From UHGV virus genome UHGV-0210052: 38,615 bases of DNA; one strand, written 5' to 3'. Positions within the stretch are counted from its first letter, which is position 1, and each line of letters opens with the position of its first letter. This document shows positions 33,339 to 36,899 of this stretch, one piece after another. The stretch is from a virus. The position numbers and the translations under genes were made by a program. A model generated the notes under the pieces. It was not told where the DNA came from. It saw nothing but the letters and a program-made list of their open reading frames with translations, and made no database searches.

Positions 33339-33539
33339 CTATTTGTTTTTCTTGTTGCTTGGGAAAGGACGAACTTCCTCTCCAATCACACTGCCATCAG
33401 GCTTTACCGTAACCATGATGTTACGGCCTGCCAGAATGGCCTTGCTGATAGCGCACTGGATTACACCAAAGTCACTGGCTGCTTTAGCCTGTCCATGGAT
33501 TTTGGCGTAATCGGCAAGTGTCATTCGAATCATATGCAC
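33339..33539 (-). CDS. cro: Cro repressor, 66 aa
   Basis: [49 protein letters not shown] closely resembles lambda Cro as recalled; GTG start. Confidence 0.85.
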
Positions 33540-33639: not shown

Positions 33640-34356
33640 ATGGAAAATAAAAAATCACTGACGACAGAACAGCTCGAAGACGCTAAGCGGCTTAAGGCTT
33701 TGTATGAGTCAAAAAAGAAAGAATTGGGAATAACCCAATACTCAATCGCTGATGAACTGGGTATCACCCAAGGAGCGGTAGGGCATTATCTTAATGGCAG
33801 AAACGCGCTAAACGTTGAGGTTGCATCTGGTTTTGCACGATTGTTGCAAGTCTCAATTGCTGATTTTAGCCAGTCAATTGCTGCCAAGGTTGCAGAACAG
33901 GCAGAAAGCCTTAAGAGCGATGCCAACGTAAGGTATGCAGGGGAATACAGAGCAGGAAAGAGGTATCCGGTGTTAAGCAGTATCCAGGCTGGCTCGTGGT
34001 GTGAAGCATGCGAACCATACACCATTAAAGACATAGATGTTTGGCTTGAGTCTGACGCGCATATTCAAGGTAATGCGTTTTGGCTTAAAGTGGAAGGTGA
34101 TTCAATGACGGCACCGGTTGGGTTAAGCATTCCAGAGGGAACATTCGTTCTTTTCGATACCGGAAGGGAGGCGATCAACGGCAGCTTGGTCATAGCAAAA
34201 CTTTCTGACTCTAACGAAGCAACATTCAAGAAGCTGATAATCGACGGCGGAAATAAATACCTCAAGGGACTTAATCCTGCATGGCCTCTCGTGCCAATCA
34301 ATGGAAACTGCAAGATTATAGGCGTTGCAATTGAGACAAAACTAAGGCTGGTTTGA
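33640..34356 (+). CDS. cI: CI repressor (HTH N-terminus, LexA-like S24 C-terminus), 238 aa
   Basis: LTTEQLEDAKRLKALYESKKKELG, Ser/Lys dyad context (EGDSM ... FKKL); resembles lambda CI as recalled. Confidence 0.9.
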   Translation: MENKKSLTTEQLEDAKRLKALYESKKKELGITQYSIADELGITQGAVGHYLNGRNALNVEVASGFARLLQVSIADFSQSIAAKVAEQAESLKSDANVRYAGEYRAGKRYPVLSSIQAGSWCEACEPYTIKDIDVWLESDAHIQGNAFWLKVEGDSMTAPVGLSIPEGTFVLFDTGREAINGSLVIAKLSDSNEATFKKLIIDGGNKYLKGLNPAWPLVPINGNCKIIGVAIETKLRLV

Positions 34357-34373
34357 TCACGCAAGGGGCGATT

Positions 34374-34742
34374 ATGGTTGGAACCGCTATAGCAAGCTTT
34401 TTTGGGATGTTGGCAATCTCGACAATTTACGGCTTAGCGCATGCTTTTATTGCGAAATCTCTATCAGAAAAAATAAGCCAGGCTTGGGCGCATAGATCAG
34501 CTCGTTTCATGATTCTTGTGATCATAGCAATACAAGGGATATCTGCATTTATCCTCTATGGATCAAGCTTATACCTATTGTATCAAGGCGCGACATTTAC
34601 GCCTTACACCAGTGATTACGGAACTCTATACGATGGTAGTGAAGACATCACTGTGGCTTGGATCGTCTTTGGTTTATCTATGGCCGTGTCTGTTGTAGCA
34701 GACATCATTAAGGTAATTCTCGTCTTAACCTTCGCTGACTAA
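34374..34742 (+). CDS. small multi-TM membrane protein co-transcribed with cI, 122 aa
   Basis: ATG 34374 with AAGGGG SD; starts 18 nt after cI stop; three predicted TM helices; no motif recognised. Confidence 0.5.
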   Translation: MVGTAIASFFGMLAISTIYGLAHAFIAKSLSEKISQAWAHRSARFMILVIIAIQGISAFILYGSSLYLLYQGATFTPYTSDYGTLYDGSEDITVAWIVFGLSMAVSVVADIIKVILVLTFAD

Positions 34743-34828
34743 CCCATAATCCCGACAGCAATAGCTATCGGGATCCACTTCACATATCCCGCATAAAAAT
34801 CACTGAACAAGCAGACAGCGAAAAAATA

Positions 34829-34913
34829 AATATCCTTTGTATTCATTTGTTTATCATTATTTCATCAAAAATAAATACCTTGGGTATTTACACAATAAAA
34901 TACCTACAGTATT
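34829..34913. promoter_or_regulatory. OL operator array
   Basis: AATATCCTTTGTATT 34829-34843, AATACCTTGGGTATT 34874-34888, AATACCTACAGTATT 34899-34913; same consensus as OR. Confidence 0.55.
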
Positions 34914-34915
34914 CT
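34887..34915 (+). promoter_or_regulatory. PL promoter
   Basis: TTTACA, 17 bp spacer, TATTCT; overlaps OL sites; about 195 nt upstream of N. Confidence 0.5.
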
Positions 34916-34961
34916 TTAGCCATCAGCAGGACGCTGGAAGCCAAACGGAACAGATTGGCAG

Positions 34962-35002
34962 GCTCTTTAACATTGATGGGATTGTCCCGCCGAAATGCGG
35001 GA
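34962..35002 (+). promoter_or_regulatory. nutL (boxA GCTCTTTAACA, boxB hairpin)
   Basis: boxA 34962-34972; boxB TCCCGCCGAAATGCGGGA 34985-35002, identical to the nutR boxB. Confidence 0.6.
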
Positions 35003-35109
35003 ACCAAAGAGTAGTTGGCTTTGGGGTGGCGTGAAGTGCAGCTGCACGACGGCAACCGGAAGATAAGCACCCGGCGCGTCACCGCCAAAGTCAATCATCG
35101 GAGGTCAAC

Positions 35110-35382
35110 ATGACAGTAGTCATTACATATCTGGCTGACGATAACGCCAGAAATCGCCGCAGAGCACGCAGACAGGCTCAACGTGAACAGGCAATGCAAG
35201 AGCAGCGACTGGCACGAAAAATTGCGCTAAAGCTCTCTGGTTGCGTCAGAGCAGATAAAGCAGCATCACTCGGAAGCCTTCGCTGCAAGAAGGCAGATGA
35301 ATGCAGTGGAAGTATTTGCCTGCCAAACGTAGCCATTTACGCGGCAGGCTACCGGAAATCAAAACAACTGACAGCGAGGTAA
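35110..35382 (+). CDS. N: N antiterminator, P22 gp24 type, 90 aa
   Basis: Arg-rich N-terminus NARNRRRARRQAQREQ; C-terminus AIYAAGYRKSKQLTAR resembles P22 gene 24 protein as recalled; GGAGG SD. Confidence 0.8.
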   Translation: MTVVITYLADDNARNRRRARRQAQREQAMQEQRLARKIALKLSGCVRADKAASLGSLRCKKADECSGSICLPNVAIYAAGYRKSKQLTAR

Positions 35383-35610
35383 GTGGTGAATCAGACATAC
35401 ATTCCATCATGCTTGAGAAATCTGCCAAAGCAGAAAGCAAAGCCCCGCAAGCAAGCCATAAAGGACGCTAAGGCAGAGGTTATTGATCAAGCAATACAAT
35501 TGCTCAGGGAGGAGTTAAGAAGTGGCAAGCTCGAAGGAATGATGATGCCCTATCAGCGCGGATATCTATCGGCGATTAGTAAGTTGGAAGTATTGAAGAG
35601 TGAATTATGA
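35383..35610 (+). CDS. hypothetical protein, 75 aa
   Basis: GTG start directly after N stop; basic N-terminus, helical C-terminus. Confidence 0.4.
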   Translation: MVNQTYIPSCLRNLPKQKAKPRKQAIKDAKAEVIDQAIQLLREELRSGKLEGMMMPYQRGYLSAISKLEVLKSEL

Positions 35611-35665
35611 ACTATCTGGAATTTCCGGATGGTTCATTGTTTTGGCAGCAAGCATAGAGGTGAAT

Positions 35666-35962
35666 ATGGAATTCAAAGGTACTAAAGGTAAGTGGGAAAT
35701 AATGATGGATGGCGATGAGATTAAAATCATCCAGGCAGACTCACTTGAAAATGGCGCAGGCTGGCGTTCGTATATTGCAATCTGTGAGGAAGTTCAATGC
35801 ATTGAAGATGCCAATCTAATAGCGGCAGCACCTGACCTTCTCGAAGCACTTCAGTTATTACTTAAGCAAGCCAAAAATAGAACAACGACAACATATCCAG
35901 AATGGTATGGAGCTGTTAATAAGGCTCTCGAAGCTATCAAAAAAGCTATAGGTGATGAATAA
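35666..35962 (+). CDS. hypothetical protein, 98 aa (alternative start 35600)
   Basis: ATG 35666 preceded by GAGGTG SD; AT-rich; stop shares a base with next ATG. Confidence 0.4.
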   Translation: MEFKGTKGKWEIMMDGDEIKIIQADSLENGAGWRSYIAICEEVQCIEDANLIAAAPDLLEALQLLLKQAKNRTTTTYPEWYGAVNKALEAIKKAIGDE

Positions 35963-36150
35963 TGAAAGTAAAAATAACTGCTTCTAATACCAGTTTTGTT
36001 AGTGTTGGTGATATTACAGAAGTAATAACAAACCATGATGGAACACAAGTTATGTGGTCTGATTTCTGTAAAAGATATGAGCGAGTTAGTTGGTGTAAAC
36101 TCGTATGGGGCGTCGAATACGAAGAATTACCTGAAATGCATGACGAATAA
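35962..36150 (+). CDS. hypothetical protein, 62 aa
   Basis: ATG overlapping upstream TAA; AT-rich; followed by inverted repeat and terminator. Confidence 0.45.
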   Translation: MKVKITASNTSFVSVGDITEVITNHDGTQVMWSDFCKRYERVSWCKLVWGVEYEELPEMHDE

Positions 36151-36245
36151 GCACTGTGTATTCATTCCAACGAGTGAATACACGGAGCAATGTCGCTCGT
36201 AACTAAACAGGAGCCGACTTGTTCTGATTATTGGAAATCTTCTTT

Positions 36246-36271
36246 GCCCTCCAATGTGAGGGCCTTTTTAT
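36246..36271 (+). terminator. rho-independent terminator inside the PL operon (tL-like)
   Basis: GCCCTC-CAATGT-GAGGGC hairpin followed by CTTTTTAT. Confidence 0.6.
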
Positions 36272-36335
36272 ATGCATACCAATAACGCTTCACGAGAGGC
36301 GTTTTCGTTATGCAATCAAACAGAAGGAGCATCCT

Positions 36336-36506
36336 ATGCAACAGTTCGCTATTGCAGGGGCGGCATCGGTTCGCCCTTTCAACCCGATTTTATCGGTACA
36401 GCATTCACGAAAAAATATTTTAACCGGAGCAGACTTTAAACAACCAAGAATGAAAAGTTTGCTCGAAAAGCTTTGGGATATTTTGAAACAACAAGGCCGT
36501 CCATGA
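36336..36506 (+). CDS. cIII: CIII-like protein (FtsH inhibitor), 56 aa
   Basis: MQQFAIAG ... KSLLEKLWDILKQQGRP parallels lambda CIII MQYAIAG ... RLIDILNQPG as recalled; AAGGAG SD; track start 36231 rejected (spans terminator). Confidence 0.7.
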   Translation: MQQFAIAGAASVRPFNPILSVQHSRKNILTGADFKQPRMKSLLEKLWDILKQQGRP

Positions 36507-36610
36507 GTTTTACAGATAACTGGTCAGACGAAGAATTCATTCGTCAGATGAACAAAATGCTCAATCAGCACAAAGAACAGGAGAAAGATGATGATTCTGA
36601 CTCTGAATGA
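36503..36610 (+). CDS. small acidic hypothetical peptide, 35 aa
   Basis: ATG overlaps cIII stop (ATGA); overlaps next gene in another frame. Confidence 0.3.
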   Translation: MSFTDNWSDEEFIRQMNKMLNQHKEQEKDDDSDSE

Positions 36611-36899
36611 TAAGCGTGAAATATCGCAAATAATCGCAAGTTTTACTGATGAAGATTACGAACGAATCAACAGTGAAGTTGATCGCCTCTGCAAACGTTG
36701 CGACCCAATAAGCGAAATGCTTCGCTCATATAAACCAGATGAACACACTAAGGACGCTATCGACTGGCTGGAAGATGATGACTGTAACTATCAGGAAAAA
36801 GCCGCTGAATGGTTCTGGGATGCAATAACCGAAAGAGTTAAGGCTGAATATGCCTTCGCAATATTCAAACGCAGACACATTTTTGGAGAAGCAGCATGA
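36588..36899 (+). CDS. hypothetical protein, 103 aa
   Basis: AGGAG SD before ATG 36588; directly upstream of recT. Confidence 0.5.
   Translation: MMILTLNDKREISQIIASFTDEDYERINSEVDRLCKRCDPISEMLRSYKPDEHTKDAIDWLEDDDCNYQEKAAEWFWDAITERVKAEYAFAIFKRRHIFGEAA

Follow-up and report, generated by a model that had tools for sequence, protein, structure and literature searches.

Independently exchangeable accessory genes probably occupy the N-to-cIII interval of a P22-like phage, ahead of a conserved PreS-type RNA element

Introduction

Is the group of small genes between the antiterminator gene N and cIII in UHGV virus genome UHGV-0210052 one acquired cassette, or a set of modules that are exchanged separately? 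The window (the whole stretch of 38,615 nucleotides (nt) that was analysed) belongs to a phage of P22-like (Lederbergvirus) type with E. coli or Shigella as host; its virion genes are ~95% identical to those of Sf101, CUS-3 and Sf6. The block examined here, 35383–36271, had been read in a preliminary description as a single horizontally acquired module of three open reading frames (ORF1, ORF2 and ORF3), closed by an inverted repeat and an intrinsic terminator and possibly devoted to host takeover, anti-restriction or exclusion. From the comparative evidence below, we consider it probable, at roughly three chances in four, that the block is a row of independently exchangeable accessory modules in the hypervariable N-to-cIII slot of the pL operon, followed by a conserved backbone RNA element. 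The first module comprises the last ~66 nt of N, ORF1 and an invariant hairpin (35317–35651), and the second is ORF2, a PF27050/Y8K6-family gene like P22 orf78. Behind it come a slot for small genes that overlap the ORF2 stop codon, here taken by ORF3, and then a hairpin and the small RNA (sRNA) PreS/LPR1, ending at the terminator tL2a. All three ORFs were found on the + strand where they had been placed, as were the one-base overlap of ORF2 and ORF3 (TAATG), the 9-bp inverted repeat and the terminator; a hairpin between ORF1 and ORF2 and a second terminator upstream of cIII had been overlooked (Table 1). The features of the locus are ordinary: accessory genes that were already catalogued but are uncharacterised stand in a new combination, within a slot known to be variable.

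Independent assortment of the three genes

The distribution of the three ORFs was determined in bacterial and viral sequences. Among 5,426 complete E. coli genomes, ORF1 was found in 149, ORF2 in 160 and ORF3 in 94. At least 80% of the block, with all three genes within one place, was covered in 12 genomes, and one of these (strain PK8241) was colinear with the window. Viral contigs were examined if they had the conserved element at the right and extended for 2.5 kb or more upstream of it; of these 86 loci, 2 carry ORF1, 11 carry ORF2, 4 carry ORF3 and none carries all three; no phage record covered more than 75% of the block. Comparison with 11 related loci by blastn placed breakpoints in similarity at 35317 (inside the 3′ end of N), 35640–35651, 35966, 36143–36151 and 36273/36274. 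ORF1, together with the 3′ end of N, sits behind two different N alleles; in BL12, phi296 and mEp506 it is ral or other genes that come next. The genes preceding ORF2 differ in mEp043 and APC_JM3.2, other genes are found inserted between ORF1, ORF2 and ORF3 in related phages, and relatives of ORF1 and ORF3 occur also in virulent, non-lambdoid phages. The proposed horizontal exchange is thus borne out, in that the N-to-cIII interval is an exchange hot spot in which the same ORFs stand beside different neighbours in many phages; the single acquired module is not, as ORF1, ORF2 and ORF3 assort independently.

The reading of the block as one host-takeover, anti-restriction or exclusion cassette bounded by its own repeat and terminator draws on three observations: a position matching that of ral, sieB and gene 17, a GC content below those of N and the window mean, and the contiguity and shared orientation of the three genes here and in E. 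coli PK8241. The position was correctly recognised, the N-to-cIII interval being where lambda and P22 have ral, sieB, gene 17 and ea10. The composition holds in part: the block (40.8% GC) is more AT-rich than N (50.5%) and the window mean (47.1%; the block lies at the 8.6th percentile of equal-sized windows) but not than the downstream backbone genes, as cIII, the kil-like ORF and orf103 (37–43% GC) are equally AT-rich. Already contradicted by the assortment of the genes, the cassette reading is further opposed by the nature of the repeat and terminator, which belong to a backbone element found regardless of the upstream gene, and by the outcome of family searches. ORF1–ORF3 gave noise only in Pfam (including Ral and Kil), NCBIfam and PADLOC, with no anti-restriction, exclusion, toxin or defence family, and no membrane or hydrophobic segment was detected in any of them. 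With no such match, no membrane segment and no promoter of their own, the suggested anti-restriction, exclusion or kil-like role found no support, and we regard a single cassette as very improbable. Homologs with established routine functions, which had been named as evidence that would speak against such a role, were not encountered either: the homologs are all uncharacterised, and the PHROG families of the three ORFs are all listed as of unknown function.

A close counterpart of such a slot is the sieB/ral/ea10 region of lambda and the ral-containing 'accessory region' described by Silas et al. (bioRxiv 10.1101/2023.04.06.535777), likewise a hypervariable slot of small non-essential early genes. 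ORF1–ORF3 differ from its known occupants in having no homology to ral, sieB, ea10 or the genes characterised by Silas et al. A search of the supplements of that study for ORF1–ORF3 found one distant ORF2-family member, QBZ71465.1, which the supplementary gene table lists without a phenotype.

The three ORFs look like real genes: the ratio of nonsynonymous to synonymous substitution rates (dN/dS) indicates purifying selection on ORF1 (0.13, measured against APC_JM3.2) and ORF2 (0.25–0.34), and ORF3 has homologs 55–61% identical in unrelated, virulent phages. It could be supposed that some of the ORFs are non-functional filler and that the RNA elements alone are important, as no function has been assigned and the families of ORF1 (phrog_5305, 41 clusters in Enterobacteriaceae) and ORF3 (21 clusters) are small. 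Given dN/dS values of 0.13 to 0.34, conservation of amino acids to distant phages (37–61% identity), a confidently predicted fold for ORF3 and a huge family for ORF2, this is barely credible.

A conserved RNA element behind the genes

The right-hand end of the block, 36151–36273, is 96.7% identical to lambda 33923–34045 (123 nt), which lies between ral and ea10. The seed region of the PreS element (36218–36242, with its core at ~36220–36237) is identical to that of lambda, and the 5′ end defined by the cloning primer of the PreS study (GAGCAATGTCGCTCGTAACT; GAGCAATG) maps to 36185. Because this 5′ end and the seed match lambda, 36185–36269 is, as judged by sequence, the ortholog of lambda LPR1/PreS and the terminator at its 3′ end that of tL2a. 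A 2024 preprint on this RNA (bioRxiv 10.1101/2024.10.31.621285) shows lambda LPR1/PreS to be an Hfq-dependent sRNA of ~88 nt with its 3′ end at tL2a, produced in lytic growth only and absent in lysogens. Processing shortens it to ~68 nt, and pairing of its seed upstream of dnaN increases translation and aids phage replication. Hfq binding, lytic expression and dnaN activation are known for lambda and would extend to the present element by analogy.

The terminator tL2a consists of a GCCCTC-CAATGT-GAGGGC hairpin and CTTTTT; the feature to which it aligns is labelled 'tL2A' in HK620 and 'terminator' in HK97. As in lambda, PreS ends in a GC stem and a U-tract, and accessory genes close to N immediately precede it in the pL operon. 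It differs in standing after ORF3 rather than ral and in a U-tract one T shorter; moreover, as ea10 is missing, tL2B and cIII come next. The element is near-invariant in HK97, HK620, Stx phages and others, and invariant in a 10-phage alignment, whatever gene lies upstream. A search with the block matched 2,240 of the 5,426 E. coli genomes, mostly via the tL2/PreS element. The repeat and terminator that had been taken to close a cassette are therefore better described as conserved PreS/tL2a backbone. The apparent cassette boundary is a recently described sRNA; about 40% of complete E. coli genomes carry its element, and Rfam 15 gave no match to it here (34700–36700, E ≤ 1).

The inverted repeat has perfect 9-bp arms, GTGTATTCA (36156–36164) and TGAATACAC (36175–36183). 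As RNA it extends to a 12-bp stem (36156–36167 with 36172–36183) with a CAAC loop, and its end lies 1 nt upstream of the PreS 5′ end. Compared with shuffled sequences, the 128-nt element folds much better (z-score −4.9). The same hairpin (type A) is kept in lambda, HK97 and HK620; in mEp043, APC_JM3.2 and P22 its place is taken by a type-B stem, ATAGCAGA/TCTGCTAT. When the two stems were compared by hand from single-sequence folds, 7–8 of the 8 lower pairs were found to be altered on both sides with pairing retained, and the apical AUU/AGU was kept. Pair counts from RNAalifold, run on five PreS-region sequences, understate this covariation because the two hairpin types are misaligned. The retention of pairing across stem types argues for a selected hairpin; the swap is effectively one replacement event and so counts as one independent observation. 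The hairpin may direct the cut by which PreS is set free from the pL transcript, or may protect the 3′ end of the upstream mRNA. It was not seen discussed in the consulted parts of the PreS preprint (bioRxiv 10.1101/2024.10.31.621285), and a covarying hairpin 1 nt upstream of the PreS 5′ end offers a testable idea of how the sRNA is excised from the pL transcript.

An alternative hairpin-plus-T-tract replaces tL2a in P22 and in two further loci (L062 and L101). In P22, 28749–28884 (L225 4250–4385, − strand), between orf87 and gene 17, holds the type-B hairpin and then a diverged PreS-like sequence (GAGCAATATCGCTCG...CTCGTTCTGGTTATTGGAG). This region ends in a different terminator hairpin (GCCGC/GCGGC), the same as in L062 and L101. 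From the diverged sequence and the other terminator, P22 may encode a distinct PreS variant whose seed is altered.

The second terminator-like hairpin, upstream of cIII, is the equivalent of HK620 tL2B, and 36274–36359 aligns to lambda 33443–33522. The junction 36273/36274, just after tL2a, is an insertion point: lambda has ea10 there, mEp043 and APC_JM3.2 a gene for a TolA-like protein of 322 amino acids (aa; APC_JM3.2 has in addition a DUF2528 gene), and BL12 an 82-aa gene. In the window tL2a and tL2B are adjacent because nothing is inserted at this point. Immediately ahead of the cIII ribosome-binding site, the tL2B hairpin lies within a 28-nt imperfect inverted repeat (36264–36323, 71% complementary). 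An ORF of 31 aa (MSLVTKQEPTCSDYWKSSLPSNVRAFLYAYQ; 36190–36285, + strand) lies within PreS and the terminator and is annotated as a coding sequence in some phages, such as phi296. It was set aside as probably not coding, its C-terminus changing with whatever comes after the terminator.

ORF1 and its hairpin

ORF1 encodes a basic (isoelectric point 9.7), soluble protein of 74 aa. Its start is most likely GTG 35386 rather than 35383, because a Shine-Dalgarno sequence (GAGG, 35376–35379) sits 6 nt upstream and the homologs have ATG at the same codon. Distant relatives are found in Erwinia, Salmonella, Pseudomonas and Vibrio phages, and a functional annotation was found for none of the relatives. 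The segment 34700–35382, which includes N, is 98.97% identical to HK620. Similarity to other phages starts at 35317, and the last ~66 nt of N (its last 22 codons) move with ORF1 as a single mosaic module. Some database proteins of 97–102 aa (P0144 and P0174) join an alternative-frame N 3′ end (MQWK..LPEIKTTD..) to ORF1 (window 35301–35471, + strand). Such proteins probably reflect frameshifts or wrong gene calls, and not a genuine isoform of greater length.

In the spacer between ORF1 and ORF2, a hairpin with its stem at 35607–35637 and a TGTTTTGG tail (TGTTTT) overlaps the ORF1 stop codon; its z-score is −3.8. The last 67 nt of the ORF1 module (35585–35651) are invariant in 6 loci, including APC_JM3.2, where ORF1 itself is only 86.7% identical, and the right joint of the module falls at 35651/35652. 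On these sequence features the hairpin may be a tL1-like terminator, some other structured RNA, or a recombination linker.

Expression and proposed mechanism

Between 34915 and 36509 no promoter-like site was found on the + strand; the only one upstream of cIII is at 34887–34915, in the pL region. Promoter-like matches in the region number 5, against 4.1 ± 1.9 expected by chance. Because the only promoter-like site lies in the pL region, ORF1–ORF3 would stay off in the lysogen and be switched on early upon infection or induction. A different expectation follows if the genes are a lysogenic-conversion 'moron', expressed from the prophage and protecting the lysogen like sieB and rex. The block resembles the classical lambdoid moron, a promoter-gene-terminator unit expressed from the prophage, in having accessory genes, here lower in GC than N but not than the backbone genes downstream, between backbone genes and a terminator behind them. 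It differs in two respects, as a promoter of its own was not found between N and cIII, where matches are at chance level, and its terminator is tL2a of the backbone sRNA, which is absent from lambda lysogens. Furthermore, the three ORFs lie inside the repressor-controlled pL operon. SieB and RexB are membrane-associated, and ORF1–ORF3, unlike them, contain no membrane segment. A moron is thus highly unlikely.

If the block is a row of modules in the pL operon, the following sequence of events can be proposed. ORF1–ORF3, having no promoter of their own, would depend on the pL transcript and be confined to lytic growth or the period after induction. Synthesis of ORF1 would accompany that of N, ahead of the hairpin at the ORF1 3′ end, and ORF2 and ORF3 would follow after N-mediated read-through of that hairpin, if it terminates; ORF3 would be translationally coupled to ORF2. 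The proteins, being small, soluble and without catalytic motifs, would most likely bind a host or rival-phage protein in host takeover or counter-defence and would be dispensable in the laboratory. PreS would be freed from the pL transcript by termination at tL2a and 5′ processing beside the upstream hairpin and, as in lambda, would raise dnaN translation through Hfq, favouring phage replication.

ORF2 and the slot behind it

ORF2 encodes an acidic, soluble protein of 98 aa and was assigned to PF27050 via its homologs. Proteins 55–97% identical to it bear a precomputed PF27050 match; one 96-aa homolog, which adjoins an ORF3 homolog, is labelled PF27050:Phage_P22_Y8K6, and a 96%-identical gene is named 'XkdD/Y8K6 family phage-associated protein' in RefSeq. 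ORF2 itself gave 0 matches in the local Pfam copy, which is older than PF27050. The description of the three ORFs as lacking recognisable motifs is thus out of date in the case of ORF2. In a profile search of 1.84 billion representative proteins, the ORF2 family reached 12,441 representative clusters (clustered at 50% identity) at E ≤ 1e-3. Its hallmarks are EFKGTxGxW at the N-terminus, a central (A)NAxLIAAAP(D/E)LLEAL (LIAAAPDLLEAL) and AIxKALGxE at the C-terminus. Within the coding sequence, ORF2-family genes are mosaic: at least 4 N-terminal types and at least 2 C-terminal types meet at the invariant LIAAAPDLLEAL motif, which behaves as if it were a recombination joint. An AlphaFold 2 (AF2) model of ORF2 (predicted local distance difference test score (pLDDT) 69.8) has a confident helical hairpin at residues 45–95 and a weak N-terminal beta-hairpin; Foldseek comparison with the PDB returned generic helical hairpins only (E > 0.5). 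Sequence searches of the PDB with single sequences and profiles of ORF1, ORF2 and ORF3 gave nothing meaningful, and literature text searches on the LIAAAP motif and PF27050 gave no papers and no ORF2 function. An assignment of ORF2 as an ead/Ea22-like gene, suggested by a similar motif, 'NAxxIAAxxP', was rejected, as hhalign against the Ea22-like protein of PK8241 gave a probability of 0.2%. With more than 12,000 clusters and no assigned function, the ORF2 family is a reasonable target for a functional screen.

Among the closest known systems is the orf78–orf87 pair of P22, which lies between ral and gene 17, the same early-left operon position as ORF2–ORF3. P22 orf78 belongs to the ORF2 family: an hhalign comparison of the ORF2 profile with this 8.6 kDa protein, from which the family takes its name, aligned the 48 residues at the C-terminus (probability 96.5%, E-value 1e-9) and left the N-terminal half unaligned, and the motifs LxxAAPELLEAL and AIGKALGKE are common to both. 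In P22, too, the downstream gene overlaps the stop codon by one base, and behind it come a hairpin and then PreS-like sequence that has a terminator. The differences are that orf78, at 78 aa, is without the EFKGTxGxW N-terminus, that the downstream gene is a DUF551 gene and not the SH3-like ORF3, and that sieB and ral stand upstream in place of ORF1.

ORF3 encodes an acidic protein of 62 aa, and its model (pLDDT 90.8) is a confident five-strand SH3-like beta-barrel. Bas11 Gp54 (PDB 9axb), which triggers CapRel-SJ46, is a small beta-barrel, and ORF3 is likewise predicted as a small barrel; it differs in having no sequence homology to Gp54 or another characterised small-barrel member. In RB49-like T-even phages a relative of ORF3 is fused to an unrelated N-terminal region of 60 aa and makes up the C-terminal domain of the resulting 119-aa protein (RB49 ORF076c, L005 2312–2671), and free-standing relatives occur in Nonanavirus, an Aeromonas phage and non-lambdoid contigs without a PF27050 neighbour. 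These occurrences show that the small barrel has passed between virulent and temperate phages. The Nonanavirus relative (SP069, L006 2492–2668) is encoded on the strand opposite to its neighbours and adjoins a minor-tail-protein gene.

In lambdoid phages the place after an ORF2-type gene is always filled by a small gene that overlaps the ORF2-type stop codon. At least 4 unrelated genes occupy this slot: ORF3, a 52-aa gene, a 66-aa gene and the DUF551 gene (orf87 in P22). Several points weigh against the modular account given above. The hairpin between ORF1 and ORF2 has a weak T-tract, and terminator-like matches in the region (4) are not clearly above those in shuffled sequences (2.2 ± 1.7). 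Expression from pL and N-dependence of ORF1–ORF3 are what we infer from the architecture of lambda and P22, and that they bind a host or phage protein is what would be expected by default of small accessory proteins, not a result. Finally, the one-base overlap with a downstream small gene recurs in 44 of 79 ORF2-family loci, and an ORF3 homolog again stands behind an ORF2 relative, 33% identical to ORF2, in L160. Because of this pairing and the recurring overlap, a functional link between ORF2 and its downstream partner was kept as a minority rival.

Under this rival, ORF2 and ORF3 would be a functional two-protein unit, a constant Y8K6 partner, scaffold or antidote coupled to an exchangeable small effector (ORF3, DUF551 or other), with ORF1 unrelated. 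Such a unit would be in keeping with a stop/start overlap retained whatever gene occupies the slot, P22 orf78/orf87 included, with the recurrence of an ORF3 homolog behind a distant ORF2 relative in L160, and with the near-constant presence of ORF2 ahead of ORF3 among lambdoid loci. An exception to the latter is L027, where ORF3 follows a 44-aa ORF in place of ORF2. The slot alleles reassort freely, uncorrelated with the N- or C-terminal variant of ORF2, which argues against co-evolving interfaces; the fixed, co-evolving partners of a toxin–antitoxin-like pair were not observed. ORF3 relatives without a PF27050 neighbour in Nonanavirus and non-lambdoid contigs, the RB49 fusion to a different N-terminal domain, and the disparity in family size (12,441 clusters for ORF2 against 21 for ORF3) also speak against a unit. 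Overlaps of the ATGA/TAATG kind are common within arrays of small phage genes. On balance a two-protein unit is unlikely. A bolder form is decidedly doubtful: the Y8K6 gene (ORF2, P22 orf78) and the gene overlapping its stop codon would be a modular early host-takeover or counter-defence pair, in which a common adaptor is coupled to interchangeable effectors (ORF3, DUF551 and two further families) and ORF3 binds a host protein involved in immunity or replication, in a manner like that of the Bas11 Gp54 barrel with CapRel.

Locus context

On the + strand the early-left operon runs from the c2 repressor gene (33640–34356) through a 129-aa hydrophobic ORF, the pL/nutL region, N, ORF1–ORF3, cIII and the kil-like ORF to a RecT-type recombinase gene. 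The features of the examined interval and its flanking backbone genes are collected in Table 1.

Table 1. Features between N and cIII in the window
Feature	Position	Strand	Details
Antiterminator N	35110–35382	+	Pfam N_peptide, E 1e-15; phrog_271
ORF1	35383/35386–35610	+	74 aa; phrog_5305
Hairpin and TGTTTTGG, candidate tL1-like terminator	35607–35645	+	14–15-bp stem
ORF2	35666–35962	+	98 aa; PF27050 Phage_P22_Y8K6; phrog_1273
ORF3	35962–36150	+	62 aa; phrog_10407
Inverted repeat / 12-bp RNA hairpin	36156–36183	+	Arms GTGTATTCA/TGAATACAC
PreS/LPR1 ortholog (by sequence)	36185–36269	+	Identity to lambda
Intrinsic terminator tL2a (PreS 3′ end)	36246–36271	+	Stem and T-tract; aligned to HK620 'tL2A'
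Second terminator-like hairpin, tL2B equivalent	36284–36310	+	Upstream of cIII
cIII, right-hand backbone gene	36336–36506	+	phrog_550, E 1e-22

The CUS-3 'boundary sequence bsq5' was considered as a match for the hairpin/terminator element and rejected, as bsq5 covers the pL/nutL region. The 129-aa hydrophobic ORF (34353–34742, + strand; phrog_6534) overlaps the c2 repressor stop codon and holds the position of HK620 hkaS. Unlike ORF1–ORF3, it could share a transcript with the repressor gene in the lysogen, and because of this possible co-transcription it would be a better candidate than ORF1–ORF3 for a prophage-expressed exclusion function.

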